Under the pieces are notes generated by a model. That model ran no database searches, had not been told where the DNA came from, and saw only the letters and a program-made list of their open reading frames with translations. Shown one piece after another: positions 6,432 through 24,000 of a stretch of 24,000 nucleotides of DNA. The DNA comes from Erysipelothrix sp. GTDB lineage: Bacteria; Bacillota_I; Bacilli_A; Erysipelotrichales; Erysipelotrichaceae. The DNA is taken from assembly GCA_036637915.1 (NCBI GenBank), contig JAVWLP010000005.1:5793-29792 (forward strand), in the 5' to 3' direction. Position numbers and translations under genes: made by a program. Within the stretch, counting starts at the first letter, position 1. Every line of letters starts with the position of its first letter.

Positions 6432-6995
6432 TTATTTTACCACAGCTCCTGAAGATATTCCCTCTTTTAAACAGTGACAAATTTCTTTGAACATTCTCGA
6501 CCGTGGCGAGATATGTCCATTAACCGAAATAATTCGGCATGAGTTTATAAATTTACAATCATTCAAAAATAGCACCGATGGTTTATTCAAACCTTCTACT
6601 TTACCAATATAATACAAATGTTCTTTGCCTTCATCAATAACATTTCTAGCCTGCTTGACTGCCTCATCATTAGATGTCATCGGCACAACAAGTAACTTAT
6701 GGTTGAACTGAGATACCACAAGTCCAAAATGTTGATAGCCAGCTTCATTAATAAAAACTTGTCCATACTCAATAAAGCATATATCGCCGACTTCAACAGA
6801 AATGTTCAAAGCATCACATGACCAGTATTTTACCCGTTTCATTCTATTGTAGCCACTAACGCATTCTTTCCTTTGCTGCCCTTTCGACAAAGACAATAGG
6901 TATTTCTTGTAGTCATCAAAATAAGATTCTAAAAGATCACGATGTTTATCTTGGTCATATTCTGACAACCATTTTTCTTCAACACGATAACCCAT
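6432..6995 (-). CDS. MazF/PemK-fold protein with ~60-aa N-terminal extension, function unknown
   Basis: 187-aa ORF. By-eye alignment to MazF/EndoA: GDICFIEYGQ..EAGYQHFGLVVSQ...LLVVPMTSN matches GD.y.adl.p..GSEQgG.RP.lV....... .v..iT. Also SVLFLNDCKFINSCRI matches DSVILLEQIRTIDKQRL. It lies 18 nt upstream of tilS, and no antitoxin-sized ORF is adjacent. Confidence 0.45.
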   Translation of the reverse strand: MGYRVEEKWLSEYDQDKHRDLLESYFDDYKKYLLSLSKGQQRKECVSGYNRMKRVKYWSCDALNISVEVGDICFIEYGQVFINEAGYQHFGLVVSQFNHKLLVVPMTSNDEAVKQARNVIDEGKEHLYYIGKVEGLNKPSVLFLNDCKFINSCRIISVNGHISPRSRMFKEICHCLKEGISSGAVVK

Positions 6996-7046
6996 TCTTT
7001 ACACCCCCAACATTAACTACATGTTAGAAGCATAAACTCCTAATAA

Positions 7047-7081
7047 AAACTCAAGAAGTCACATGAGCGGTTCTTGAGTTT
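7047..7081 (-). terminator. Rho-independent terminator downstream of mreB-like gene
   Basis: 11-bp stem aaactcaagaa / ttcttgagttt with a 13-nt loop, followed on the minus strand by tttttatta. Confidence 0.65.
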
Positions 7082-7088
7082 CATTTTA

Positions 7089-8087
7089 TTATCCAATAAG
7101 TTCTAAGTTTTCTAACATGATTCCTGTTCCTTCAGCAACACATGTTAATGCGTTTTCAGCAACGTATACAGGAATGCTTAATTCATTAGAAATTAATGAA
7201 TCGAGACCGTGAAGTAATGCTCCACCACCTGTTAAGACAATTCCACGAGTTACGATATCTGCTGATAACTCAGGAGGTGTTTGTTCAAGCACTGTACGAC
7301 AGGCACGAACAACATCTTGAAGACTTTCATGCATTGCATGAGCTGTTTCTTCTGCCTTTAAAGTAATTGTGTTAGGAAGTCCGGTAACAAGGTCACGACC
7401 ACTTACTGAGTAAGAAGTAACTTCCATGTCAGCGATTCCTTCAACTGTTGCAGTACCAATGTTTGTTTTGATTGCTTCAGCTGTACGATCACCAATTAAA
7501 AGTTTATAAGTTTCTTTTACATATTTAATGATATCTTGATCCAAACGGTCACCCGCTACTTTTAGTGAAGTACTTGTAACGATTTCTCCTAATGAAAGAA
7601 TAGCAACGTCAGTAGTACCACCACCTATATCAAGAACCATTGAACCTGTAGGCTTGGAAATGTCCAAGTTTGCGCCAACTGCAGCTACTTTAGGTTCTTC
7701 TTCGATATAAACACGTTTTGCTCCAGCACGGTATGCAGCATCACTGATAGCCTTGCGTTCAACAGATGTGATATTCGATGGACAACAGATTAATATTGTA
7801 GGTCTCGAGAATGCACCTTTTAATTTTAATTTACGCATAAAATATTGAAGCATCATTTCTGTTACTTCAAAATCCGCAATAACACCATCACGTAAAGGTC
7901 TAATTGCTGAAACCCTCACTGGTGTTCTTCCTAACATTTCTTTTGCTTCTTGTCCAACTGCTAAACATTTCTTTGTTTCTGCATCAATGGATACTACTGA
8001 TGGTTCATCAAGAACAACACCTTCTCCACGTACATAAATAAGAATATTGGCCGTCCCTAAGTCAATACCGACTGCTTTTGAAAACAT
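7089..8087 (-). CDS. mreB: Rod-shape-determining actin homologue (MreB/Mbl family)
   Basis: 332-aa ORF with actin-fold motifs GIDLGTAN, LDIGGGTTD and LTGGGALL. It is not followed by mreC/mreD, so it may be an Mbl/MreBH-type paralogue. RBS ggagga lies upstream. Confidence 0.9.
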   Translation of the reverse strand: MFSKAVGIDLGTANILIYVRGEGVVLDEPSVVSIDAETKKCLAVGQEAKEMLGRTPVRVSAIRPLRDGVIADFEVTEMMLQYFMRKLKLKGAFSRPTILICCPSNITSVERKAISDAAYRAGAKRVYIEEEPKVAAVGANLDISKPTGSMVLDIGGGTTDVAILSLGEIVTSTSLKVAGDRLDQDIIKYVKETYKLLIGDRTAEAIKTNIGTATVEGIADMEVTSYSVSGRDLVTGLPNTITLKAEETAHAMHESLQDVVRACRTVLEQTPPELSADIVTRGIVLTGGGALLHGLDSLISNELSIPVYVAENALTCVAEGTGIMLENLELIG

Positions 8088-8137
8088 ATTTATTCCTCCA
8101 ATTTCAATTTTCTACATGATATAATTCAACGATAATC

Positions 8138-8341
8138 CTAAAATGAATTGTGCCACAAGGTATCCAATTGTGCCACAAGGTATCCAATTCCCATTGATAA
8201 CAAGAGATAAAGAATTTGAATATGAACCGTATGACCGCGTTTCATAATCTTTTCAAAATCAATGCCACTCAATGCATAACCCGCTAATAAAAAGCATACT
8301 AAATAGATTACTATCCTTATGATGTCAATCATTGTTATCAC
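8138..8341 (-). CDS. Small two-TM membrane protein (possibly DUF1146/YwzB-like), C-terminus altered by a 20-bp duplication
   Basis: 67-aa ORF with two hydrophobic helices (IIRIVIYLVCFLLAGYALSGI; IQILYLLLSMGIGYLVAQ). The family assignment rests on a remembered pattern only. The last 9 codons are created by the tandem repeat at 8146-8189. Confidence 0.5.
   Translation of the reverse strand: MITMIDIIRIVIYLVCFLLAGYALSGIDFEKIMKRGHTVHIQILYLLLSMGIGYLVAQLDTLWHNSF
8146..8189. repeat. Perfect 20-bp tandem duplication (2.2 copies of aattgtgccacaaggtatcc)
   Basis: Positions 8146-8165 are identical to 8166-8185, and 8186-8189 repeat the first 4 nt. The flanking bases 8145/8165 and 8170/8190 differ. Confidence 0.95.
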
Positions 8342-8440
8342 CTATATTACTATATCAAAAATAATTGTCGATTTCTACGATAATATTAATGTTTCATTGC
8401 ATCACATATTAACACTTATTTTGTTTATTCCTAATTAAAA

Positions 8441-8458
8441 TAGAGAGACTTCTCTCTA
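8441..8458 (-). terminator. Terminator hairpin overlapping the stop codon of the transglutaminase-like gene
   Basis: tagagag-actt-ctctcta, flanked by aaaa on one side and tttt on the other. On the minus strand it is followed by ttttaatt. Confidence 0.55.
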
Positions 8459-10750
8459 TTTTAAGATTTCACCAAGATTTTCGTTGTCTACAAATCCAAC
8501 TTGATATCCACAACTGCTGAGTAATGTCTTCCCGTTCTTAACAATAACTACAAACGGATAAACCTTCGGTTCTCTAAAATGTCTTCGAACCATCATTTCC
8601 TCGATATCCTTACGCCAGGTATCAACAAACAGAACATTATCAAAGGCATTTGAGAGTAATTGCAACATCGGATGATTCATTTCTCCCCCGTTGAAAAAGA
8701 CAATTTCCGAACCCGATTTTTGGATGGTTTCTTTTTTTATAATAAGTTCATTAATGACATGTTGTGTCGGTTCTTCATCCGGATTACCTATCACAATAAA
8801 GCCTTTTAAAAGATTGATATCTAAGGATTTCATTAAATCGCTGATTTCAATGTTTTCAAGTAAATCCTCAATAGACACATGTTTTACATTGATATCTAAG
8901 CTGCAATCGCCCACAATACTTTTCATGACTGTCGTTCCTATGATTGTCCCATTTGGGAGTCTATTCGAAGCAATCGCTAAATAACGACCTTCTACTTTTT
9001 TCGCAGTATTTTGAATAATGAAATCTCCGGTATCTTGAAATGGATTGCTCGGTGTCAAACTGACAGTATATTTAGCCATATCTTCCGTAAGCTTAACGTT
9101 AAACTCCGGTTTTCTTTCAATATTCAGATAGTTACCATCGACATATATTTCCACAACATTATTAACATCATTGAATCGTGCAGGAATCCCTTTACTCCGA
9201 CATATGGCAACGATAGTAAGTTGTTTATCAAAATAAGTGCCGACATTATTAGAAATCACTTTTGTAAACGGAATGATTGTATCTTCAACAAAATATTCAG
9301 ATTCTTCGCTCACACCATTCATAACGCTATTATATATTTCTATAGGATTGTCTTCGCAATAAGTTTCAAATTCTTTGGCATAGGCAACCATGTTTTCATA
9401 TGCTACACGTGGATTGAGTATGCTTTCTCTAAAAATTCGAATTGGGAATTTTCCTCTATGTTTTTCTACAATATCACAGTGTTCAACCAACATATTGGCA
9501 TCAAAATCATACCGGTCTTTTTCTGACAACAAGCTGAGCACTTCTTCTGTTCGAAGATTTCCAATTCTTGTTCTTAGTTCTTGAATATTTTGTGGTTCTT
9601 CCTTAGTTCGATTTTCTTCAAGTGTAGCAATTCTTTCACGATAACGCTTCAAGCCTTCATTTTTACGTTTCACTTTTCGATGTGCTTCAATTTCAGTGCT
9701 CGACTTCGGTTTCAAGTGAAGATCCTGTGCCTTTTGAACTAAATCGATATTTTCATCTTTAATGAGAGAATGGTTATTCAAAATAACACTTTGAGTACTC
9801 TCATTGATAGATTCTATATAATGCTTTTCTCCTACTTGAGCATATACAAACGCATCACCACCACCTAACGTAAATAAGGCTTTTCCATTAAGTACGGGTT
9901 GGGTTACCACTTTCTTTAAGTTTCCATAATTGACCACGCAAACACTCACAACTTTAATTGTTTCTACATCTATTTCCACCACTACCTCATGAGCACGATT
10001 ATATCTTTGTATCACATTAATTTTCTTATAAATTCCATGGTCTTCTAAAACTGGTTCAGAAGTCGGTAAGTTAGAGAATTGGTTCGATTGCACAACCAGC
10101 GCCCTTGATGCTGCAAGTGTGAACCATGCAGTATCAAAGGTTTCTTCTGCATCACCCGCTCCAAGATAATGCCACTCGCCATCAATATAAACCTCAACCC
10201 AAGCATGTCTATCATCACTATGTGTCCACCACGGTGCATAGATTTGGCGTGCAGGAATACCGTTGGCTCTCAAAACTTGAACTAGAAATGTAGATTTTTC
10301 TCCACAACGCCCTGTACCGTTTTTATAAGTTAGTGACGCATACTGTGTACGAGCATCTGTACTTCGGTACTGAACAATACCTATCATCCAATAATTCAAC
10401 GCAAAAATAGTTTCTTTCAAATCATCCACAATAATCGCTTCAGTGATACTTCTAAAATATTGTCGACATGCATCAAGTTTTTCATTATTAACTTTTGGTT
10501 GTAATACATAATCGAAAAATACTTGATCCGGTATATTTTGGTGATAAGCATTTTTCACCGCATAGGTGTTTTCTACGAAATCATTCAGTTCTGTTTGGGT
10601 AATTAGAACATCTGCTTCCGAGAGGTAGGCAAGAATATATTTAGCATATAAACTTCTTTCTCCATCATATTTTTTTATATCAATATGCTCGTAAAGACCC
10701 TTTCGCAGCTCATAATCTCTATTAATGATTGATTCTATTTGTTTATCCAT
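8456..10750 (-). CDS. Transglutaminase-core (PNGase-like) protein, 764 aa, cytoplasmic
   Basis: Cys-His-Asp core GTGRCGEKSTF...GIPARQIY...DDRHAWVEVYIDGEWHYLGAGD (Cys codon at 10304-10306). Start placed at ATG 10750, preceded by RBS aagagagga. The 15 upstream codons in the ORF track are a translation of the cutC terminator hairpin. No signal peptide. Confidence 0.75.
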   Translation of the reverse strand: MDKQIESIINRDYELRKGLYEHIDIKKYDGERSLYAKYILAYLSEADVLITQTELNDFVENTYAVKNAYHQNIPDQVFFDYVLQPKVNNEKLDACRQYFRSITEAIIVDDLKETIFALNYWMIGIVQYRSTDARTQYASLTYKNGTGRCGEKSTFLVQVLRANGIPARQIYAPWWTHSDDRHAWVEVYIDGEWHYLGAGDAEETFDTAWFTLAASRALVVQSNQFSNLPTSEPVLEDHGIYKKINVIQRYNRAHEVVVEIDVETIKVVSVCVVNYGNLKKVVTQPVLNGKALFTLGGGDAFVYAQVGEKHYIESINESTQSVILNNHSLIKDENIDLVQKAQDLHLKPKSSTEIEAHRKVKRKNEGLKRYRERIATLEENRTKEEPQNIQELRTRIGNLRTEEVLSLLSEKDRYDFDANMLVEHCDIVEKHRGKFPIRIFRESILNPRVAYENMVAYAKEFETYCEDNPIEIYNSVMNGVSEESEYFVEDTIIPFTKVISNNVGTYFDKQLTIVAICRSKGIPARFNDVNNVVEIYVDGNYLNIERKPEFNVKLTEDMAKYTVSLTPSNPFQDTGDFIIQNTAKKVEGRYLAIASNRLPNGTIIGTTVMKSIVGDCSLDINVKHVSIEDLLENIEISDLMKSLDINLLKGFIVIGNPDEEPTQHVINELIIKKETIQKSGSEIVFFNGGEMNHPMLQLLSNAFDNVLFVDTWRKDIEEMMVRRHFREPKVYPFVVIVKNGKTLLSSCGYQVGFVDNENLGEILK

Positions 10751-10772
10751 AATATCCTCTCTTAATAATATA

Positions 10773-10803
10773 AAACACAGATGTACTGAGGACATCTGTG
10801 TTT
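10773..10803 (-). terminator. Rho-independent terminator at the end of the PTS/peptidase operon
   Basis: Perfect 12-bp stem aaacacagatgt / acatctgtgttt with a 7-nt loop. It starts 3 nt after the cutC stop codon and is followed on the minus strand by ttttatattatt. Confidence 0.7.
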
Positions 10804-10806
10804 CTT

Positions 10807-11547
10807 TTAGATTTGATTGACTGTATCCAGCATCTTCTTAAGTTTTACAGGATCAACACCATCGTAATCGCCAAGTTCACTGTATCCGTAAGATACATCA
10901 TTCCCTTTAGTAGTAGGGTCTTGGTACCAACCTTTAAACGAGCCGTGAAGTTGTGTAACACCACTTCGTTCGATTAATTCTTTAGCATTCTCAGCATTAA
11001 CTCCAGCACCGAGACACAATTCAATTTTATCGCCATATTTACTTTGGAGTTCTCCCAATAAATCTAACCCTTCTTGTGCAGTGCTCTTAAGACCACTGGT
11101 AAGAATTCGATCAACTTTACAATCAATGAGCGCCTCAATAGCACTATAAGGATTATCAACACGATCAAACGCACGATGGAATACTGCTTCGACATTACTT
11201 TCGTGACATAGATCCACAAATCGTTTTGTCGTCTCAATGTCGACAGAACTGTCTGCGTTTAAAAAACCAAACACGAGTGCATCCGTACCGTGTTTAATCA
11301 AATGTTTCGCATCTTCATACATTGTTTCAATTTCAAGAGGTGTGTAATGAAACCCTCCTGGACGAACACGAACCATACTAACAATAGGTAATCTCGTAAC
11401 CTCTTTTGCTTTTATCAATGTCGCAATACTTGGTGTCAATCCACCAAGATGCACACCGTTATTTAGTTCAATACGATGTGCACCACATTCTTGTGCTATT
11501 TCACAGTCACGAACCGACCCTGCACATACCTCAATACAATATTTCAT
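10807..11547 (-). CDS. cutC: CutC-family TIM-barrel protein
   Basis: 246-aa ORF colinear with my recollection of E. coli CutC (GGLTPS, FHRAFD, RILTSG, GAGV..EN motifs). Confidence 0.8.
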   Translation of the reverse strand: MKYCIEVCAGSVRDCEIAQECGAHRIELNNGVHLGGLTPSIATLIKAKEVTRLPIVSMVRVRPGGFHYTPLEIETMYEDAKHLIKHGTDALVFGFLNADSSVDIETTKRFVDLCHESNVEAVFHRAFDRVDNPYSAIEALIDCKVDRILTSGLKSTAQEGLDLLGELQSKYGDKIELCLGAGVNAENAKELIERSGVTQLHGSFKGWYQDPTTKGNDVSYGYSELGDYDGVDPVKLKKMLDTVNQI

Positions 11548-11557
11548 GTAAATCTCC

Positions 11558-12952
11558 TTATCTTGGATGAATCATTGCTTCTGGTCTTAACGCTTCATCA
11601 ACTTCTGCTTCCGTCATAAGCTTTTGTTCTAATACGATTGCTCTTAATGATTTGTTTTCTTTTAGAGCTTGCTTGGTAATTTCCGATACTTTAGAGTACC
11701 CTAAGTATTTAACAAGCGCTGTTGCCATAGCTAATGAGTGTTCCACATAATCATGAACACGATGTTCATTCACTTTAATATCTTGGATTGCATGAACTCT
11801 TAAAGTCATACATGCATGTCTTAATATTTCTAATGACTCAAATAAGTTATAGAATAGAACAGGTTCAAATACATTAAGTTCCATTTGGCCTGCCTCTGCC
11901 GCCATACTTACGGTCGCATCGTTACCAATTACTTGGAAACAAACTTGGTTAACAACCTCTGGGATAACAGGATTTACTTTTCCTGGCATAATTGAACTTC
12001 CCGGTTGTTTTTCCGGTAGAAAGATTTCATTAAAACCAACTTTTGGACCGGATGCCATCATTCGAATATCATTACATATTCTCGAAAGACCAATCGCAAA
12101 GGTTTTTAGTGACGCATGAACATGTGCAAATCCGTCAATATGCTTGGTTGCATCAATTAAATCTTCAGCACTTACAAACGACTTCCCAGTGATTCGAGAA
12201 AGATTCGTAACAGCATGTTCACGATACCCTGGTACTGAGTTAATTCCCGTACCAACAGCGGTCGCACCTAAGTTTACGATTTGCATTTCACTTAGAGCGC
12301 GTTGAACACGCGATATATCACGACGCATAACGGATTCATAACTGTGGAATACTTGTCCCATAGAAATTAAAACTGCATCTTGAAGGTGAGTTCTCCCTAC
12401 TTTAATAATAGGCTCAAACTCGAGTGCTTTCGCATGGAATGTTTCAGCAAGAAATTCCATTTCTTCAAGTAAGAGTTCCCCTAGATTTAGGACTGTTAGT
12501 TTTCCTGCAGTAGGAATAATATCATTGGTTGATTGTGCACGGTTAACGTGATCATTTGGATGGATGAAATCATATACACCAATCGGTTTCTCCACAATTT
12601 GCGCAGCGCGATTCGCAATGATTTCATTCACATTCATATTCATTGAAGTTCCGGCACCACCTTGAATTGCATCCGTAACAAATTCGTCTTTGAATTTACC
12701 ACTAATGATTTCATCACAGGCAATCACGATAGCATCCTTACGAACTTGATCCAGTTCGTCCACTTCAAAGTTTGCTAGAGCACAAGCCTTCTTAACTTGT
12801 GCTAAAGAAATATACATCATATCATTCACATGACGTCCAGTAATTTGAAAGTTTTGCATCGCACGTACGGTTTGAGCACCATACAATGCGTGACTTGGAA
12901 CTTTCACTTCACCAAGTGAATCATGTTCAATTCTGTATTCGCTGTCTCTCAT
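11558..12952 (-). CDS. aspA: Aspartate ammonia-lyase (aspartase)
   Basis: 464-aa ORF in the fumarase/aspartase superfamily. The signature GSSIMPGKVNPVIPEVVNQVCFQVIGND is aspartase-type (V-I-P-E rather than the fumarase T-Q-C-E). QSTNDIIPTA is also present. Confidence 0.85.
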   Translation of the reverse strand: MRDSEYRIEHDSLGEVKVPSHALYGAQTVRAMQNFQITGRHVNDMMYISLAQVKKACALANFEVDELDQVRKDAIVIACDEIISGKFKDEFVTDAIQGGAGTSMNMNVNEIIANRAAQIVEKPIGVYDFIHPNDHVNRAQSTNDIIPTAGKLTVLNLGELLLEEMEFLAETFHAKALEFEPIIKVGRTHLQDAVLISMGQVFHSYESVMRRDISRVQRALSEMQIVNLGATAVGTGINSVPGYREHAVTNLSRITGKSFVSAEDLIDATKHIDGFAHVHASLKTFAIGLSRICNDIRMMASGPKVGFNEIFLPEKQPGSSIMPGKVNPVIPEVVNQVCFQVIGNDATVSMAAEAGQMELNVFEPVLFYNLFESLEILRHACMTLRVHAIQDIKVNEHRVHDYVEHSLAMATALVKYLGYSKVSEITKQALKENKSLRAIVLEQKLMTEAEVDEALRPEAMIHPR

Positions 12953-12964
12953 TTTGATCTCCTC

Positions 12965-14074
12965 TTATAGATTTCTCAACTTGTAGAGTGCACTACTATA
13001 TATTTTACCATTATTCAAAATATCATCAAGATTCATCCACTCATCTGGTAAGTGAGCAATGTCTTTTTGGCCTGGGAAACTTGGTCCAAATGCAATAATA
13101 TTTGGAATTATTTTTGCATAAGTTCCACCTGTTGTGGTTACTGGAGCTAAACGTTCTCCCATTACTTCTTCATATGCATCTGTAAGTAATGTAATTTCGT
13201 CTGATTCCTTGTCATAGAATACAGGATCCCAGTTATGAGCACATACAACTTCAATACTTTCTGGAGTTACGTTACGAATCATATCAATCAATTCATCCAC
13301 ATTTTTCACTTTTGGGTAACTTAACGAAATTTGGAAAAATAAGTTGTCATCTGACATACCCAATTTATACCCACGCATAATCATCTCACCAAAGTCTTCA
13401 TCTTTAACGTTAATACCAAGTTTCACACCATTATTTGGACTTGAAAGAATGTATTCATTTACGAAATTGTTGAAAACCTCTTGGGAACCGTGATTTACAA
13501 ATTGGATTAATGCACGACCTCTTTCACCATATACCGCTGGCCATTTACAATCGGGTGTCCATCCAAACACGGGTGGATTTTCTTTTGTAAGGTAGTGTTT
13601 AACACAACCAAATCCCGATTCTTCGTTAGTACCGAATACAATTCGTACCGGTTTATTGAATGTTACACCAAGTTCTTTAAGTGCATAGAGCGCATAAAGG
13701 TTTGTAAGAATCGGTCCTTTATTATCGAGGACACCACGCCCCCAAATACGGTCTTTATCAATTGTTCCACCTAGCGGAGGATATGACCAACCTTCACCTA
13801 AAGGCACGACATCAACGTGACCAAAGATTCCGATATAATCACCATCTCCTTCACCGTATTGCGCATAACCAATAATATTATCAATATTTTTTGTTTTAAA
13901 TCCTAGTTCTTCAGCAATTGCGAGAACTTCTAGAAGCGCTTTTTTGGGCATTTCACCATAAGGTGCATCCTCTGTATGCACACCTTCAACTGATTCAATT
14001 GCCACAAGACGTTGGATTGATTTTAAGAGATCAGGCATTAACTCATCCATTTTCGCGTAAATTTGATCGAGCAT
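12965..14074 (-). CDS. M20-family dipeptidase (PepV/Sapep-like, short lid domain)
   Basis: 369-aa ORF with metal and catalytic motifs HVDVVP, GRGVLDNKGP, GTNEESG, GWTPDCKWPAVYGERG and HLPDEW. It is about 100 aa shorter than the typical PepV length I recall. Confidence 0.75.
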   Translation of the reverse strand: MLDQIYAKMDELMPDLLKSIQRLVAIESVEGVHTEDAPYGEMPKKALLEVLAIAEELGFKTKNIDNIIGYAQYGEGDGDYIGIFGHVDVVPLGEGWSYPPLGGTIDKDRIWGRGVLDNKGPILTNLYALYALKELGVTFNKPVRIVFGTNEESGFGCVKHYLTKENPPVFGWTPDCKWPAVYGERGRALIQFVNHGSQEVFNNFVNEYILSSPNNGVKLGINVKDEDFGEMIMRGYKLGMSDDNLFFQISLSYPKVKNVDELIDMIRNVTPESIEVVCAHNWDPVFYDKESDEITLLTDAYEEVMGERLAPVTTTGGTYAKIIPNIIAFGPSFPGQKDIAHLPDEWMNLDDILNNGKIYSSALYKLRNL

Positions 14075-14075
14075 A

Positions 14076-15032
14076 CTATTTTTCCTCCAAAGGTTTCATT
14101 CGGTCACTTAAATATTTATCTAACCATTCTTGAGACGCAACTTCATGAATCATATGATCACCTTCGCGTCTCGTAACATAAACTGTATTTTCTTTTTTTT
14201 CTGTCGCTACAGCAAATGAGAAGTTTTCAATGTTTGACGCAACACCCCACTCACCATTTTTGTTCATCGCAACAATAGAAATGTCTCCAGCTTCGCCACG
14301 ACGTGCAATTAATTCACGATCAAGATCAAATGTTACTTTTTCTACTGCTTCTTGTGGAGAAAATCCTTCTTTCATAAGACGAACGACTTCATAAGAAACA
14401 ACGCCCTTCATGAGGTCTTCTCCCAATCCAGTTGCGGAAGCACCACCGACTTGACTGTCTGCATAAAGTCCTGAACCAATGATTGGAGAATCCCCAACAC
14501 GGCCTTTTTTCTTCATAAACAAGCCGCTGGTTGACGTACCTGCAACGACATTATGTTCGCTATCTACTGATACCATTCCTACTGTATCATGTCCAGAGTA
14601 TGGTGAAATCTCGATTTCGCGCATATCTTTCACGCGGTTTTTATAGTGAATCTTTGCGCGATCGGTTAGCATGTTTTTACGTTCAAATCCTTCTTTGTGA
14701 GCGTAAGCTTCAGCTCCAGCACCAACCAACAAATTATTCACTTTATATTGACTTAAGGAACGTGCAATTGAAATTGGATTTGCAAAATCTTTGATGGCTG
14801 CTATGGCACCTATATTGAATGTTGTTCCATCCATGTATGCTGCATCCAACTCAACTTCCATTTCCTCATTTGGAAGACCTCCATACCCTACAGATTTGTA
14901 GAATGGAAAATCCTCCACTGCTTTAATTGCGGTTTCGATAGCATCTCCAGCACATCCTTTTTCACTCAGGATTTCTGCAGCACTGTCAATTCCTTCTTTA
15001 GCCATGCGCCATGTTGCAATTATGCCCCACAT
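14076..15032 (-). CDS. Glycosylasparaginase-type Ntn hydrolase (N4-(beta-N-acetylglucosaminyl)-L-asparaginase-like)
   Basis: 318-aa ORF with autoprocessing site GHD|T150VGM, plus GRVGDSPIIGSG and ATGLGED. The N-terminus ATW... and SVGYGGLPNEE..LDAAYMDGTT are colinear with remembered human AGA. No signal peptide. Confidence 0.75.
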   Translation of the reverse strand: MWGIIATWRMAKEGIDSAAEILSEKGCAGDAIETAIKAVEDFPFYKSVGYGGLPNEEMEVELDAAYMDGTTFNIGAIAAIKDFANPISIARSLSQYKVNNLLVGAGAEAYAHKEGFERKNMLTDRAKIHYKNRVKDMREIEISPYSGHDTVGMVSVDSEHNVVAGTSTSGLFMKKKGRVGDSPIIGSGLYADSQVGGASATGLGEDLMKGVVSYEVVRLMKEGFSPQEAVEKVTFDLDRELIARRGEAGDISIVAMNKNGEWGVASNIENFSFAVATEKKENTVYVTRREGDHMIHEVASQEWLDKYLSDRMKPLEEK

Positions 15033-15042
15033 ACTAATACCT

Positions 15043-16125
15043 CTACTCTCTATAATTGTAATTCTGACTTAGTATTTTTTCGTATTTTTCAGTTGTTAAA
15101 TCTCTGACGATATATTCAACCAATCGTAATGTTTCTTGGATATCGAATTTATGAACCACGCCACGATGTGTATGCATATATCTCATAGGAATTGATAGGA
15201 TAATTGATGGAATTCCTTCACGTGATTTATGAATGTTTCCGGCATCAGTTCCTCCATCTAGAAAACAACCTAACTGATATTGAATCTTGTTTTCTTTACA
15301 AATTCCTTCAAGATAATTAAGAAGTCCTCGATTTAAGATAGTCATCGAATCAATCACACTAATTGTTACTCCACCACCTAATTTAACAATATTTTGATCT
15401 TCGGGTGTATCACCGGCCACAGTTGTATCAATTGCGATAGCAAGATCGGGATAGATTAAATCTGCCGTTGTTCGAGCACCTCGAAGTCCGACTTCTTCTT
15501 GGACAGTTGCCGCAAGAGTCACTTCATTATTCGTTGGGTTTTTAAGAAGTGATTGCATTAACCACATTCCAACTGCCACACTAGCACGATCATCAAAGGC
15601 CTTACCACAGATATAATTTTCATCATTCATGATACGACTCTTCGATACGAATGCGACCATATCGCCTTCTTTAATACCCATGTTTAGAATTGCTTCTTTA
15701 GTATTTACTCCCATATCTACGTAAACACGATCCATAGGGATCGTTTTACTGCGCTCTTCCATCGTCATTCCATGCATTGCTTTACTACCGATTATACCGA
15801 AGAACTCCTCGTCTTTATCGTTAATAACAACCACGTCTTGACTCATAATGACATGTGGCCAAATACCACCCACAGGCTGTAGGAAAAGATAACCATTAGA
15901 ATCAATTTTTTTCACGTAGAATCCAACTTCATCCATATGTGTTGCCATCATAATTCTTAATCCATTTCCTTCTTGCGTAAATAATGCAGAGCCTATTCCG
16001 TCTTGCTCAAGGGGTAGATTAATTTTTTCTTGTAGGTATCTCACAACTCGATGTTCCATTCCCGAAACACCAAAAATATCAGACAGTTCTAACAAATCAT
16101 CCCAATTGATGTCATGGCTACTCAT
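15043..16125 (-). CDS. M42-family (TET/FrvX/YsdC-like) aminopeptidase, catalytic residues intact
   Basis: 360-aa ORF. All canonical motifs are present: THMDEVGF, KAFDDRA, VQEEVGLRGA, IAIDTTVAGDTP, GGTDAGNIH and RYMHTH. Confidence 0.85.
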   Translation of the reverse strand: MSSHDINWDDLLELSDIFGVSGMEHRVVRYLQEKINLPLEQDGIGSALFTQEGNGLRIMMATHMDEVGFYVKKIDSNGYLFLQPVGGIWPHVIMSQDVVVINDKDEEFFGIIGSKAMHGMTMEERSKTIPMDRVYVDMGVNTKEAILNMGIKEGDMVAFVSKSRIMNDENYICGKAFDDRASVAVGMWLMQSLLKNPTNNEVTLAATVQEEVGLRGARTTADLIYPDLAIAIDTTVAGDTPEDQNIVKLGGGVTISVIDSMTILNRGLLNYLEGICKENKIQYQLGCFLDGGTDAGNIHKSREGIPSIILSIPMRYMHTHRGVVHKFDIQETLRLVEYIVRDLTTEKYEKILSQNYNYRE

Positions 16126-17113
16126 ATCGAGTGCCTCTACAGTTTTGAGTTTCTACAATATGATTTGCATCAAGGGATACCAAATAATGATTTAAGACTT
16201 TGGTAATGTTATCAAGATACTTTGTATCGATAACATTATGAATCGTTTCTTTATATTTTACTGGAATCACCACAACCACTGTAGGGGTTCCAGACAAAGA
16301 TTTATGAATGAATGCCCCATCGGTAGGAAGGTCTGTAAGATGGGCTTGTGGGTTGAAACCACAGCTTCTCGCAGCCTCGTAAAGATCATGTTTGAGAGTT
16401 TGACTTGGTAGAAGAGATTTATCAAAGCTTCTTATAAAAATATCCTTGTCTTCCCAAGCTTCCACATATGCTACATCAATGACGATTGCGATATCAGGGG
16501 TTACCGCTGTTGTGGCAGTAATCGCACCACGTTGTCCAACCACCGAATGAGAAATACCACCTACATTTAAGTTGAAATCAAGCTCATTTACTTCTAGAGA
16601 TTCAAGTAATTTTAAACCAACTTCAATACCGGCTCTATTTGATAAGTTATTAGCTGCTACACTCTCATTTAAGGATTCAAATCGTGGTGTAACTACCACA
16701 AAGTTTCCAACGAGAATTCCCGCTTCTTCTGCTTCCACTTTTGTTTTAAAGCCAGCATCAATAACAAAGTCATCACCTTTTCTCAAAACGATTCCCGATC
16801 TTTTATTATGATGTCTATCAAGAAGTGTTATAAACTGATCATTTAACCATGATTTCTTATAGAGACCAACAATAATGAACTCTAGGCTTCCGTCATCATT
16901 AATTTTAGAAATCATCATGCCACTTTCATCCATATTTGAACTAATCATAACATTGTAGTCAGAATTTCCTTTTTTAACGCCAAAAACAGATCCCAGACGA
17001 TCCTCAATAATTCCTAAACCTTTACTTTTATATAAATCATAAAGATAATCACGAATTTCTTTCTCATCACCAGAAACAGCTGGTAATGCACATAACTCCT
17101 GCAAACGATTCAT
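16118..17113 (-). CDS. M42-like paralogue with degenerate active site (probable pseudo-peptidase)
   Basis: 331-aa ORF colinear with the neighbouring M42. Substitutions are SNMDESGM (His->Asn60), NLSNRAG (Asp->Ser158) and HSVVGQRGA (Glu-Glu->Ser190-Val191). Its 3' end overlaps the downstream M42 start by 8 nt (ATGAGTAG). Confidence 0.7.
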   Translation of the reverse strand: MNRLQELCALPAVSGDEKEIRDYLYDLYKSKGLGIIEDRLGSVFGVKKGNSDYNVMISSNMDESGMMISKINDDGSLEFIIVGLYKKSWLNDQFITLLDRHHNKRSGIVLRKGDDFVIDAGFKTKVEAEEAGILVGNFVVVTPRFESLNESVAANNLSNRAGIEVGLKLLESLEVNELDFNLNVGGISHSVVGQRGAITATTAVTPDIAIVIDVAYVEAWEDKDIFIRSFDKSLLPSQTLKHDLYEAARSCGFNPQAHLTDLPTDGAFIHKSLSGTPTVVVVIPVKYKETIHNVIDTKYLDNITKVLNHYLVSLDANHIVETQNCRGTRYE

Positions 17114-17122
17114 AGTTACTCC

Positions 17123-17641
17123 TTAATATAAGAACGATTCGTAAGTTGATTTTGGTTCGTTCTCAACAACTGCTTTCAGTACTTTTGACATATTTTCTAA
17201 TGAGTCATTTAACCCTGTTCCACCTTTACGTGGCATCTTAATTATTTTCACTGTATCTTTGTATTGTTCAATCACTTCAGCATTCTCTTTCGAGAACATC
17301 GCTACAGCTTTTGTTTCTGTATTTTCTTCAATATATTGTGCAAGAATCGCTGACATTTTCGAATAGTCAGGATAATCAAAACAAGGTCCACAGAGTACAA
17401 CATCTGCTTTTAATTTTGTAGCAAGACCCGCAACTTTACGCTTAACTTCATCCTCATTATCGAAGAAATAGCCGTTACCACAATACATTGTTGCAAGAAC
17501 AACGCCACCTTCTTGTTTAATAAACTTTTCAAACATATGATAAGAACCAATGCCACCTTTTTCAACTGCTAATTCAACATTAGGTCTTTCTTTTCCACCA
17601 GCTCCTGCTTGTGTTTGATCAAAAAATAGTAATACTCTCAT
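17123..17641 (-). CDS. Small protein resembling the N-terminal domain of glycine/sarcosine/betaine reductase protein B (GrdB), function unknown
   Basis: 172-aa ORF. MRVLLFFDQTQAGAGGKERPNVE...GGIGS resembles the GrdB N-terminus as I recall it (VVHY.NQFF.GIGGEEKAD...G.G). No in-frame TGA or selenocysteine, and strong RBS aggagg. The family call is tentative. Confidence 0.4.
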   Translation of the reverse strand: MRVLLFFDQTQAGAGGKERPNVELAVEKGGIGSYHMFEKFIKQEGGVVLATMYCGNGYFFDNEDEVKRKVAGLATKLKADVVLCGPCFDYPDYSKMSAILAQYIEENTETKAVAMFSKENAEVIEQYKDTVKIIKMPRKGGTGLNDSLENMSKVLKAVVENEPKSTYESFLY

Positions 17642-17660
17642 AATGTTCCTCCTAAAATGA

Positions 17661-17709
17661 AACGAAGCAAACTCATGAAGTCCTTATCGGTCTTTCACAA
17701 GTCGCTTCG
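17661..17709 (-). other. Long imperfect intercistronic stem-loop between EIIC and the enzyme genes
   Basis: Outer stem acgaagc / gcttcgt encloses a further ~8 pairs with G-U pairs and a bulge. On the minus strand it is followed by ttcatttt and then the RBS aggagg of the next gene. Confidence 0.4.
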
Positions 17710-17728
17710 TGTTTAATTACATTAATTC

Positions 17729-19081
17729 TTATAGATCATCAAATGAAATATCGTCAAGTGAGATATCATCTAATTCATCAACCACTGTATCTTGTGGTTT
17801 CATTTCATCTTCAAGATATTGTTTGTCCAAGATTCTGAAGAATGGGTAGTAAACTAAGCAACCTAATGCTAGAAGACCTAATTGGAATACTCCAGCAAAG
17901 AGACTACCTGTTGATAACCATCCCGAGAAGAAGATTGGTGTTGTCCATGGTAGCGCAATTCCTGTTGTATAAGGAATAATACCCGTAATTGTAGCTGCTG
18001 TAGCTAAAGCGATATTCATAACTGGTACAAGTAGGAATGGAATAAGAATGATTGGGTTCAACACGATTGGAAGACCAAAGATAATCATTTCGTTGATTCC
18101 GAAGATACCAGGAACAATTGACAAGCGACCAAGTTGTTTCATACGTTGGGATTTACCCATTGTCATCATCAAGATTACAAGTGAGAGGGTACTTCCTCCA
18201 CCACCATAGTTACCAAAGAAGTCTGAGAATGGTCCTGTAAAGATGTATGGTAATGTTTCACCTGCAATATAAGCTGCTTGGTTAGCATATGTCATTGTGT
18301 TGTGAATTGGTGAGAATACAGTATTGGTAATAGCTGGTCCATTAATACCAAAGAACCAGAATAGGTTTGATAAGAATTGGTAAATTGCTTCAAAGAAGTT
18401 ATTCGTTCCAAGACCCATCAACGGCGTTTGCAGTACTGTAAAGATAAAGTTTTGAGCATTTCCAAATGATGTATTAACGAATACTAAACGTACTAAGAAG
18501 AAAGTAATCATTACGAACATACTTGGAACTAAAGCAGCGAAGGATCCCATAACTGCAGGTGGAACACCTTCAGGAAGTTTAATAACCCAACCTTTTTTAG
18601 TTACAAATGCAAAGATTTGAACTGCAACAATAGCAGTAATCATAGCAAGGAATAAACCTTGTGAGTTTAAGTTTGAGAAAGCAAACCCTCTAAATGGTTT
18701 ACCTGCTTCATTTAAGAATAGATCGTGTGTTTGTGGTGTAATGATAAGATATGATACAAGAGCAACCACACCACCTGCAATAGGTTCAACTTTTAATTGT
18801 TTTGCGTATGAGTAAGCAATACCTAATACGTTAAGCAATGCAATCATATTAATTGTAGCATTTGATACTACTAATAGGTGGCTGTCCCACCCTGCCCCAA
18901 AGATTCCTTCCATAAATTCTGGATATCCAGTAATAGGGAAGTTTGCAATCAATAAGAATATTGATGCAACAATAATTAATGGCGTACTGATTAAGAAACC
19001 ATCACGGATTGCAACAAGAACTTTATTCGTACTTAGTTTTTCCGCGATTGGCGCCATCGTATTTTCTAGCCAATCAAACAT
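17729..19081 (-). CDS. PTS lactose/cellobiose-family EIIC permease
   Basis: 450-aa polytopic membrane protein with the typical EIIC(Lac/Cel) N-terminus (PIAEKLSTNKVLVAIRDGF). It has an unusual acidic C-terminal tail. It lies 3 nt downstream of the EIIB gene. Confidence 0.9.
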   Translation of the reverse strand: MFDWLENTMAPIAEKLSTNKVLVAIRDGFLISTPLIIVASIFLLIANFPITGYPEFMEGIFGAGWDSHLLVVSNATINMIALLNVLGIAYSYAKQLKVEPIAGGVVALVSYLIITPQTHDLFLNEAGKPFRGFAFSNLNSQGLFLAMITAIVAVQIFAFVTKKGWVIKLPEGVPPAVMGSFAALVPSMFVMITFFLVRLVFVNTSFGNAQNFIFTVLQTPLMGLGTNNFFEAIYQFLSNLFWFFGINGPAITNTVFSPIHNTMTYANQAAYIAGETLPYIFTGPFSDFFGNYGGGGSTLSLVILMMTMGKSQRMKQLGRLSIVPGIFGINEMIIFGLPIVLNPIILIPFLLVPVMNIALATAATITGIIPYTTGIALPWTTPIFFSGWLSTGSLFAGVFQLGLLALGCLVYYPFFRILDKQYLEDEMKPQDTVVDELDDISLDDISFDDL

Positions 19082-19084
19082 ATG

Positions 19085-19408
19085 TTATTCTCCTCTTCCT
19101 TTAATAAGCATAATCGCTTTCTTTAATACACGTTCTCCATCGACTTTCCCATAATCTTCTAAATCGATTACTTCGATAGGAACACCTGTATCTCCATATT
19201 TCGCTTTTGTTTCTTCAAATTTATATTTAATTTGTGGACCTAGCAAAATAACATCTGGATGAAATTCCTGAACAATGGCATCCATCTTTGAATCAGAGAA
19301 TGCTTTCACTTCAATCGGTAAATTATGAGTGTCGGCAACTGTTTGCATTTTACTTGCTAACAAGCTTGTTGACATCCCTGCATTACAGAATAAATATACA
19401 CGTTTCAT
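19085..19408 (-). CDS. PTS lactose/cellobiose-family EIIB
   Basis: 107-aa ORF with the phospho-cysteine loop LFC8NAGMSTS at the N-terminus. RBS aaggaggga lies upstream. Confidence 0.9.
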   Translation of the reverse strand: MKRVYLFCNAGMSTSLLASKMQTVADTHNLPIEVKAFSDSKMDAIVQEFHPDVILLGPQIKYKFEETKAKYGDTGVPIEVIDLEDYGKVDGERVLKKAIMLIKGRGE

Positions 19409-23026: not shown

Positions 23027-24000
23027 TTATTCGGGCTTAATCATCTTTTGATAATCAAAGAATACATCAAATTCTTCCGAAGTCATAAGGTCATGCCCAA
23101 CAACTACATCTTTAATACTTAAGCCTTCTTGGTGAGCTTCTTTCACAATTTTCGCTGTTTCATCATAACCAAATCTTTGGTTTAAAAATGTCGCGGTCAT
23201 AAGTGACGTTGTAAGGTTGGTTTCCATTTTATCTTCATTAACAGTAATACCACTCAAGCACCGTTCGTTAAATGAATTGAGAGCATCTGATAATAGCACA
23301 ACAGATTGCCATGTATTATAGATAATTAATGGCATATATACATTCAATTCAAAATTCCCTTGAGAAGATCCAATCACAACCGCTTGGTTATTGGCCATAA
23401 CTTGAACACAAGTCATCGTCAGTGCCTCACACTGAGTCGGGTTTACTTTCCCTGGCATAATCGAGCTTCCAGCTTCATTTGCAGGCAGATTAATTTCTCC
23501 CAATCCACATCGCGGACCACTCGCTAACCAACGGATATCATTCGCCATTTTCATCGAGTTACTTGCAATAGCATTCAAAGCACCATGATTGAATACGAAG
23601 GCATCCTTTGTACTCATCGCGTGGAATTTATTAGGGGTCGGTTTAAAACTTTCGTCCAGATATTTATTGAGAATGTTACAAACTTCTAAGTCAAATCCTT
23701 CGTAAGTATTTAGTCCCGTTCCTACAGCTGTAGAACCTATTGATAGATTTCGTAAATAAACAAGTGCATCTTCAATTTGTTTATTGCCCTCAACATACAT
23801 ATATTGCCAGCCACTGATTTCTTGTCCAAAAGAAATTGGTGTTGCATCTTGAAGGTGTGTTCTTCCCGTTTTGAGGACTGAACCGTACTTTTCACCTAGA
23901 ATGGAGAATGTATTATCCATTGAATTCATACTTGGTATAAGTCTTTTTTTCAGTATCTCTACGGTGCAAATATGCATCGCAGTTGGGAATACATCGTTTG
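23027..24000 (-). CDS. fumC: Fumarate hydratase class II (C-terminal ~324 codons; 5' end lies beyond the window)
   Basis: The signature GSSIMPGKVNPTQCEALTM is fumarase-type, with GRTHLQDATPISFGQEISGW. The frame stays open to position 24000 (..NDVFPTAMH..), so the ATG at 23977 is internal. Confidence 0.85.
   Translation of the reverse strand, partial: NDVFPTAMHICTVEILKKRLIPSMNSMDNTFSILGEKYGSVLKTGRTHLQDATPISFGQEISGWQYMYVEGNKQIEDALVYLRNLSIGSTAVGTGLNTYEGFDLEVCNILNKYLDESFKPTPNKFHAMSTKDAFVFNHGALNAIASNSMKMANDIRWLASGPRCGLGEINLPANEAGSSIMPGKVNPTQCEALTMTCVQVMANNQAVVIGSSQGNFELNVYMPLIIYNTWQSVVLLSDALNSFNERCLSGITVNEDKMETNLTTSLMTATFLNQRFGYDETAKIVKEAHQEGLSIKDVVVGHDLMTSEEFDVFFDYQKMIKPE

Follow-up and report, generated by a model that had tools for sequence, protein, structure and literature searches.

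A seven-part transglutaminase-fold protein encoded next to cutC in an Erysipelothrix glyco-asparagine locus, a candidate Cys-His amidase

The window, that is, the whole stretch of 24,000 nucleotides analysed here, comes from a genome of Erysipelothrix sp. (GenBank assembly GCA_036637915.1, contig JAVWLP010000005.1, positions 5,793 to 29,792 of the forward strand). We describe a minus-strand gene of this window, which encodes a protein of 764 residues (P0001) with a transglutaminase-type core and which we consider as a candidate amidase of glyco-asparagine catabolism. An AlphaFold2 model of the protein, built on 28 homologues (predicted local distance difference test score, pLDDT, 87.9; predicted template modelling score, pTM, 0.89), resolves seven parts. 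They are listed below together with the gene and the hairpin in front of it.

8456..10750, minus strand: gene of the transglutaminase-fold protein (P0001), 764 residues, stop codon at 8456-8458 (open reading frame list, gene call, homologue lengths)
10772..10804, minus strand: terminator-like 13-bp hairpin, then UUUUAUAUUAUU, between the cutC stop codon and the ribosome-binding site (AAGAGAGGA) and ATG of the gene
10376..10750, minus strand: N-terminal all-helical domain, residues 1-125, with invariant D47, N88, E90 (PRVNNE motif), N119 and W121 (AlphaFold2, 28-sequence alignment)
10106..10378, minus strand: catalytic transglutaminase core, residues 125-215 (Pfam, alignment, AlphaFold2)
9731..10093, minus strand: beta-sandwich, Big_1-like, residues 220-340 (profile match to PDB 3e8v, E 2.5e-25; DSSP)
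9311..9694, minus strand: helical middle domain, residues 353-480, with invariant K411, D412, D415 and E452 and near-invariant R448 (AlphaFold2, alignment)
9116..9283, minus strand: degenerate second transglutaminase core, residues about 490-545 (hhalign, Pfam)
8915..9106, minus strand: second beta domain, residues 549-612, with a loop of low confidence at 570-580 (AlphaFold2)
8459..8872, minus strand: C-terminal thioredoxin-like domain, residues 627-764, without CxxC (Foldseek matches of the ResA/TlpA type, profile match to 2m72, alignment)

The open reading frame of the gene spans 8456..10795 and encodes 779 residues when counted from its first ATG. This earlier ATG, at 10795, falls within the terminator-like hairpin distal to cutC. 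The ATG at 10750 gives 764 residues and is the start in the database gene call and in all close homologues (760-764 residues); the ribosome-binding site of the gene sits 6 nt ahead of it. A first-pass annotation, made from the letters of the window, had put the gene at 8456-10750 with 764 residues, and the gene call and the homologue lengths back this start. The catalytic residues that it called C164 and H197 are real as well, whereas their numbering belongs to the 779-residue frame; in the 764-residue protein they are C149 and H182. Longest-frame gene callers would append 15 spurious residues at this locus. As that annotation also said, no signal peptide is present (maximal 19-residue hydrophobicity 0.88 within the first 50 residues), and because the N-terminus is charged and helical and has no hydrophobic stretch, the protein is predicted to be cytoplasmic. 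The hairpin has a free energy of -16.1 kcal/mol (z -2.6) and a U-rich tail. The gene behind it may be expressed by read-through.

The catalytic segment lies at nt 10151-10318, exactly where the first-pass annotation had seen it, and its translation is GTGRCGEKSTFLVQVLRANGIPARQIYAPWWTHSDDRHAWVEVYIDGEWHYLGAGD. Pfam assigns the core to Transglut_core (PF01841) with E 8.2e-21 and 74.8 bits against a cut-off of 23; it is the sole Pfam match in the protein. In the model C149 (codon 10304-10306) stands at the N-terminus of helix 149-162, and H182 (codon 10205-10207) on strand 182-189, adjacent to that helix. The significant profile, the Cys at a helix N-terminus and the His on the following strand place the core in the transglutaminase superfamily. 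Residues G147-R148-C149-G150-E151, D180, H182, A183, W184 and E186 are invariant in 28/28 members of the family, hence the GRCGE motif is not there by chance. The residue after it is E, K or Q, not W. The models that give C149 and H182 these positions are confident.

A second core was claimed at nt 9116-9253, and it is real: the segment reads SNNVGTYFDKQLTIVAICRSKGIPARFNDVNNVVEIYVDGNYLNIE, with both the Cys and the His replaced. When the two core regions of the family alignment are compared profile to profile (hhalign), they match with a probability of 96.7% and E 3.6e-10 over 57 columns. The second core alone matches Transglut_core with E 0.0012, and AlphaFold models it as a helix plus three strands, laid out as in a core. 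By these comparisons it is a true internal duplicate. The other parts of the protein are less easily named. A Pfam search gives no match for the N-terminal helical domain. The homologue of the beta-sandwich, PDB 3e8v, is a fragment deposited as a ‘possible transglutaminase-family protein’. The C-terminal thioredoxin fold is free of cysteine and has a conserved, nearly invariant E-P-x-x-H (E660-P661-x-x-H664) at the site of the CxxC redox motif, which suggests a conserved non-redox site.

The protein belongs to a large bacterial family for which we found neither a name nor a published characterisation, and NCBIfam has no model for it. A word-indexed search gave 28 full-length relatives with 24-89% identity, which are colinear over the full length and share the seven-part architecture and the invariant motifs. 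At least 595 species carry the family when each GTDB species is represented by a single genome, and among 1.84 billion representatives, searched exhaustively with a profile, 1,493 representative proteins match end to end at E <= 1e-30. The matches listed include members from Lachnospiraceae, Oscillospiraceae, Atopobiaceae and many Bacteroidales. Lipoprotein signal peptides are found in Bacteroidales members and in none of the Firmicutes members. In the tree the window protein, the E. larvae protein P0004, P0003, its tandem paralogue in locus L124 and P0005 form a group with support 99. The group is itself nested within the Lachnospiraceae part of the tree; the Bacteroidota form a single clade. 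Locus L124, of an uncultured relative, carries the two tandem paralogues at 6461-11086 (760 and 777 residues, with GRCGEK and DD.HAWVE), divergent from a PRD/EIIA regulator. Another member (L092:3899-7426, minus strand) is 1,175 residues long and has an N-terminal module like carbohydrate-binding module 9 (CBM9); a gene for a fucosidase of glycoside hydrolase family 29 (GH29) lies directly upstream of it.

The first-pass annotation saw in GRCGE a likeness to peptide:N-glycanase (PNGase). The likeness holds: in hidden Markov model alignments GRCGE, H.W.E.Y and the trailing A-C-E line up with mouse PNGase. With Png1/NGLY1 (PDB 2f4m, 3esw) the protein thus shares the Transglut_core superfamily, the GRCGE nucleophile motif, the His in H.W.E.Y, the A-C-E after the third strand, the predicted cytoplasmic location and, as proposed here, the chemistry of Cys attack on a glycosyl-Asn amide. 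Kinship is another matter. The remote-homology search that was proposed along with the PNGase reading has been run, and on the structural side it goes against that reading. The first 225 residues were modelled alone (pLDDT 89.7) and searched against the PDB with Foldseek. TglA (E 1.7e-4) and 3isr (E 2e-4; root-mean-square deviation 3.4 A over 133 columns) come out on top, followed by 3kd4, 4xz7 and TgpA, whereas the PNGases of mouse (2f4m, E 0.019) and yeast (3esw, E 0.095) take ranks 12 and 46. A Foldseek ranking from the whole protein was dropped, since multidomain FXIII/TG2 and ResA matches dominated it, and was redone with the domain-only model. Sequence profiles give E 0.023 and 0.0068 for 3isr against 0.64 and 0.28 for PNGase, the latter not significant.

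Other parts of Png1/NGLY1 are missing too. The yeast and mouse structures have a zinc-binding domain with two CxxC pairs. The 764 residues contain no CxxC anywhere, and just two Cys occur in the first 225, so there is no zinc site of the Png1 type. The Pfam search of the protein shows no PUB or PAW domain and no Rad23-binding region. Unlike Png1/NGLY1, the protein has Gly in place of the catalytic Asp, and its seven-part architecture includes a dead second core and a thioredoxin-like end. On these comparisons it branches off separately and deeply within the superfamily and does not belong to Png1/NGLY1. Bacterial transglutaminase-like proteins of the cysteine-protease type match the fold of its catalytic domain best (E 1.7e-4 to 1e-2): Cytophaga hutchinsonii 3isr, S. 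pyogenes TglA (9crn), P. aeruginosa TgpA (6g49) and P. distasonis BDI_1141 (3kd4). They differ from the window protein in having G.C..FA-type motifs and in retaining the Asp at H+15; no protein among them has the seven-part architecture or, in the data seen, CutC as a partner, and the TM-scores are just 0.3-0.46. In a November 2026 listing of PNGase classes the transglutaminase fold belongs to Png1/NGLY1 only (PMC13728245). Our literature search found no characterised bacterial PNGase of the transglutaminase type and no relevant report on TglA.

The function of the protein has to be considered from its genomic company, which in the window is an operon with glycosylasparaginase (AGA) and a phosphotransferase system (PTS).

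10807..11547, minus strand: cutC (Pfam CutC, E 3.2e-51), immediately upstream of the transglutaminase-fold gene
11558..12952, minus strand: gene of aspartate ammonia-lyase (AspA), with the signature GSSIMPGKVNPVIPE
12965..19408, minus strand: rest of the glyco-asparagine operon, with M20 peptidase, glycosylasparaginase (14076-15032), two M42 peptidases, a GRDB-like protein, PTS IIC and PTS IIB

Further upstream on the same strand are a fumarase-type lyase, a PRD/EIIA regulator and PTS IIA. The AGA of the window is an Asparaginase_2 enzyme. An ega-type PTS/glycosylasparaginase locus for N-acetylglucosaminyl-asparagine (GlcNAc-Asn) was reportedly described in E. faecalis by Combret et al. in 2023. 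The typical gene order, judged from 16 AGA loci of relatives (L108-L123, L093 examined), is regulator-IIA-IIB-IIC-GRDB-AGA-M20-CutC. CutC regularly closes these loci, with AGA-(M20)-CutC in 12 of the 16. The transglutaminase-fold gene is in none of them and is not a regular member of an ega-type locus; due to this absence from standard AGA loci we regard it as an add-on in the window. Across 100 related genomes AGA is present in 41 and the transglutaminase-fold protein in 0, and neither AGA nor PTS lies near any of the 80 GTDB family loci. Hence the protein is no constant partner of the AGA-PTS operon, and its annotated attachment to the glycosylasparaginase operon, though true of the window, is not general. 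The window is the one case seen with AGA and the candidate in a single operon, which permits a direct comparison of their substrate ranges. It also adds AGA-M20-CutC as the standard layout in this taxonomic family, counts at the level of genomes, and a second, independent CutC fusion. The GlcNAc-L-Asn PTS/glycosylasparaginase locus of E. faecalis is cited in PMC11976118 and PMC12502629, and the importer of the window is of the type shown to carry small GlcNAc-Asn.

The steady partner of the family is CutC. It lies within 10 kb in 43 of the 80 GTDB family loci, mostly directly upstream on the same strand, as in the window, where the gene starts at 10750 behind cutC at 10807-11547. Pfam places CutC at position -1 in 29/74 loci, and overlaps of stop and start codons occur. 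The order cutC-then-gene, with overlaps and fusions, is a signature arrangement of the family in three phyla. Among 151 genomes of the Lachnospiraceae family CutC is present in 22/22 carriers of the protein and in 21/129 non-carriers, counts from mutually related genomes that do not amount to a formal statistical test. There are two fusions of CutC with the family protein, 1,066 residues long in a Lachnospiraceae genome (L091:5140-8340, plus strand) and 1,088 residues long in the representative library (P0088), and the two are just 31% identical. One fusion is cytoplasmic; P0088 has a hydrophobic, membrane-span-like linker (LMEVLAALLILLLTPALQAG) between its halves, so that CutC would lie in the cytoplasm and the hydrolase beyond the membrane. 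CutC also occurs in 5/5 AGA-positive Lachnospiraceae genomes, once in an IIC-GRDB-AGA-M20-CutC operon. Thus CutC partners either enzyme, as expected if AGA and the transglutaminase-fold protein do the same kind of step.

Other neighbours point to glycoprotein remnants. GH29 alpha-L-fucosidase is found in 22/80 family loci, often adjacent, and GH92, GH18, GH97, LacI, ROK kinase, sugar ABC transporters and M28 peptidases are also near; fucosidase, GH92 and GH18 neighbours and the CBM9 fusion recur in two phyla. In three lineages of the window's clade, with 29-38% identity, AspA, CutC and the protein form a triad, which implies that free Asp is among the products. The order is AspA-CutC-gene in the window and in a metagenomic relative (L127; 29% identity), where stop and start codons overlap. 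In E. larvae it is gene-AspA-CutC, next to PTS IIB-IIC-GRDB, fumarase and malic enzyme.

Moreover, AGA is dispensable for carriers of the protein. Asparaginase_2 is absent genome-wide from five of them, namely the complete E. larvae, Blautia fusiformis, Robinsoniella peoriensis, Phocaeicola massiliensis and Thermophilibacter provencensis, and in the complete, AGA-less E. larvae the PTS IIB-IIC-GRDB locus carries the family protein, AspA and CutC. In the 151 Lachnospiraceae genomes AGA is rare either way (2/22 carriers and 3/129 non-carriers). A proven pathway for comparison is alf-2 of L. casei, which uses Fuc-alpha1,6-GlcNAc-Asn by means of GH29, ROK kinase, M20 peptidase, an Asp-consuming enzyme and a transporter (PMC6960285). 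The neighbourhoods of the family likewise have GH29, ROK kinase, M20-type peptidase, an Asp-metabolising enzyme and a transporter; they supply every alf-2 function except glycosylasparaginase, and the simplest reading is that the family protein fills this gap. Unlike these neighbourhoods, alf-2 relies on AsnA2 and lacks both CutC and a transglutaminase-fold protein (PMC6960285 contains neither word), and unlike alf-2 the 91%-complete genome of the window has no GH29 fucosidase; GH85 is absent from it as well.

Hence, we suggest that the 764-residue protein is a Cys-His amidase with N-glycosyl-asparagine as its substrate, either as such or within short peptides, and that its action runs parallel to that of AGA or extends it. 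We regard this suggestion as evenly balanced between right and wrong, and as the best hypothesis, by analogy and context and not by membership in PNGase. Of the amidase idea that the first-pass annotation drew from the operon, the company of glycoprotein-remnant catabolism survives, while PNGase membership and a constant link to AGA do not. The fold, the conserved Cys and His, the family, its gene neighbourhoods and fusions and the lack of AGA in several carriers are observed; what the protein acts on, which bond it cuts and what CutC does we infer as follows.

In the first step Cys149, at the N-terminus of its helix, would be activated by His182 and would attack GlcNAc-Asn at its N4-amide; this GlcNAc-Asn would be either the free compound or the terminal residue of a short peptide that enters through the PTS.

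In the second step a beta-aspartyl thioester would form and the glycosylamine would leave.

In the third step water would free aspartate, or an Asp-peptide that is completed by the M42 and M20 peptidases of the operon. Aspartase would then turn Asp into fumarate, and CutC would do a step that is needed after either amidase.

In the window the protein would work beside the classical glycosylasparaginase, probably on substrates that AGA cannot take. AGA requires free alpha-amino and alpha-carboxyl groups (PMC6960285). Since AGA has this requirement and the window has AGA together with two M42 and one M20 peptidase, we infer that the window protein handles peptide-bound or otherwise AGA-resistant forms. 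In the AGA-less relatives it would fill the slot of AGA. The two enzymes would have the same substrate and products, GlcNAc-Asn giving Asp and glycosylamine, and glycosylasparaginase loci (E. faecalis ega, L. casei AsnA2) have the same company of CutC, M20 peptidase, an Asp-consuming enzyme and either a GlcNAc-Asn-type PTS or fucosidase and ROK kinase. However, glycosylasparaginase is an Ntn hydrolase of unrelated fold with an autoprocessed N-terminal Thr in place of the Cys-His pair. The two coexist in the window and replace each other elsewhere.

Several observations weigh against the amidase reading. The position of the canonical triad Asp, at H+15, is occupied by G197, and Gly is found there in 27/28 members; G197 aligns with the catalytic Asp of PNGase and has the spacing of the Asp of 3isr, thus the protein does not have the complete canonical Cys-His-Asp triad. 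Acidic residues follow, at position 200 (E24, D3, S1) and at position 202 (26/28), of which the former is not strictly conserved. By fold and profile the core is nearer to the protease-type bacterial transglutaminase-like proteins than to PNGase. The window already has AGA, so the amidase is not required to close the pathway, and the terminator-like hairpin stands between cutC and the gene. The gene is rare in its own taxonomic family (the 0/100 above), and literature searches yielded no biochemical or genetic datum on any family member. Finally, the family protein of Bacteroidales is a lipoprotein, whereas no signal peptide is present in the CutC next to it, therefore the two cannot share one labile intermediate in one compartment there. 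The idea that CutC hydrolyses a labile glycosylamine was downgraded on this ground and because of the membrane-span-like linker in one fusion. As the Bacteroidales CutC is cytoplasmic and its partner exported, the compound on which CutC acts must be stable and transported; it cannot be a short-lived intermediate that both meet in one compartment.

What else could the protein do? The nearest structural neighbours are annotated as cysteine-protease-type (3isr, 3kd4, CPR-C4, LapG), and peptidase genes are frequent around the family, with M42 and M20 in the window, M28 among the neighbours of the family and MlrC in E. larvae. The protein might then be a cysteine peptidase that trims glycopeptides: it would cut peptide bonds beside glycosylated Asn, giving GlcNAc-Asn for AGA or just peptides and fucose, and leave the sugar-Asn bond uncut, with the window's own AGA available for the final step. 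Such a pathway would stop at GlcNAc-Asn in the AGA-less carriers, yet the coupled aspartase needs free Asp. CutC pairs alternatively with AGA or with the family protein, and this fits equivalent steps better than consecutive ones. We consider the trimming peptidase unlikely, though worth keeping in sight. The superfamily also includes deamidases and acyl-transferases, and TG2/TG3, arylamine N-acetyltransferases and TgpA are among the matches. An amidase, deamidase or transamidase with a substrate other than N-glycans (for example beta-aspartyl or isoaspartyl compounds, free asparagine derivatives or gamma-glutamyl compounds), connected to glycans indirectly through CutC, would satisfy the aspartase link, which demands only that Asp is produced. 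CutC is, moreover, not confined to the pathway, since 18 of the 43 CutC-positive Lachnospiraceae genomes lack both the protein and AGA. We think this distinctly unlikely in view of the fucosidase, GH92 and GH18 neighbours and the CBM9 fusion across two phyla, and of the Erysipelothrix gene lying in a PTS locus of the GlcNAc-Asn type.

The canonical Asp that is missing family-wide, the dead second core and the redox-dead thioredoxin fold would agree with a non-catalytic protein that binds or scaffolds glycopeptides, one core being degenerate and the other perhaps just binding. This is improbable: the invariance of Cys149, His182 and their surroundings over sequences just 22-29% identical argues for catalysis, and Cys-His dyads suffice in many papain-like hydrolases. 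The hairpin with its U-rich tail, the housekeeping genes downstream and an 89%-identical relative with the same downstream synteny could mean an unrelated neighbour, separated from the operon by a terminator and having some other cytoplasmic function next to mreB. The cutC-then-gene signature of the family in three phyla, with overlaps and fusions, makes this very improbable. A genuine bacterial orthologue of Png1/NGLY1, which de-N-glycosylates whole glycopeptides with full glycans, is scarcely credible. It has the alignment of GRCGE, H.W.E.Y and the trailing ACE with mouse PNGase on its side; the PNGase matches are not significant, with E 0.28-0.64 by sequence and 0.019/0.095 by fold (ranks 12/46), there is no zinc CxxC pair, the catalytic Asp position is Gly, PUB and PAW domains are absent, and the PTS importer of the window is of the type for small GlcNAc-Asn.

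If the family is a glyco-asparagine amidase, it would explain how many gut Lachnospiraceae, Oscillospiraceae, Coriobacteriia and Bacteroidales finish the cores of host N-glycoproteins without glycosylasparaginase, and it would provide a new enzyme class for the deglycosylation toolbox. The known bacterial routes for breaking the bond between N-glycan and asparagine are the PNGase F/A-type enzymes and the Ntn glycosylasparaginases. That the transglutaminase-fold protein with CutC is a third, previously unrecognised route, used by hundreds of species of AGA-less gut Clostridia and Bacteroidales, is possible but doubtful. CutC has a human homologue, CUTC, and an amidase of this kind would give the orphan CutC family, including the human protein, its first functional anchor, in glyco-asparagine catabolism. 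The copper phenotype of E. coli CutC is due to the small RNA MicL (PMC4102768). The links of CutC with AGA loci are a lead to its real function, and the literature searched holds nothing relevant on CutC with glycosylasparaginase, fucosidase or GlcNAc-Asn.

Three minor features of the locus and its genome complete the description. After PTS IIC, at 17123-17641, the window encodes a protein of 172 residues that matches only the N-terminal half of the glycine reductase protein GrdB. The same half-length protein is seen in loci L002, L093, L109, L113, L115, L118 and L123, and it follows PTS IIC in every GlcNAc-Asn-type locus examined. The source genome has one GH18 gene (C9:53767-54954, in a 644-residue frame), which could be an endoglycosidase producing GlcNAc-Asn stubs. 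The fumarase-type lyase gene at 23027-24000 of the window precedes the regulator, and E. larvae has fumarase and malic enzyme at L002:2037-4576; this suggests that a drain from Asp via fumarate and malate to pyruvate is attached to the locus.

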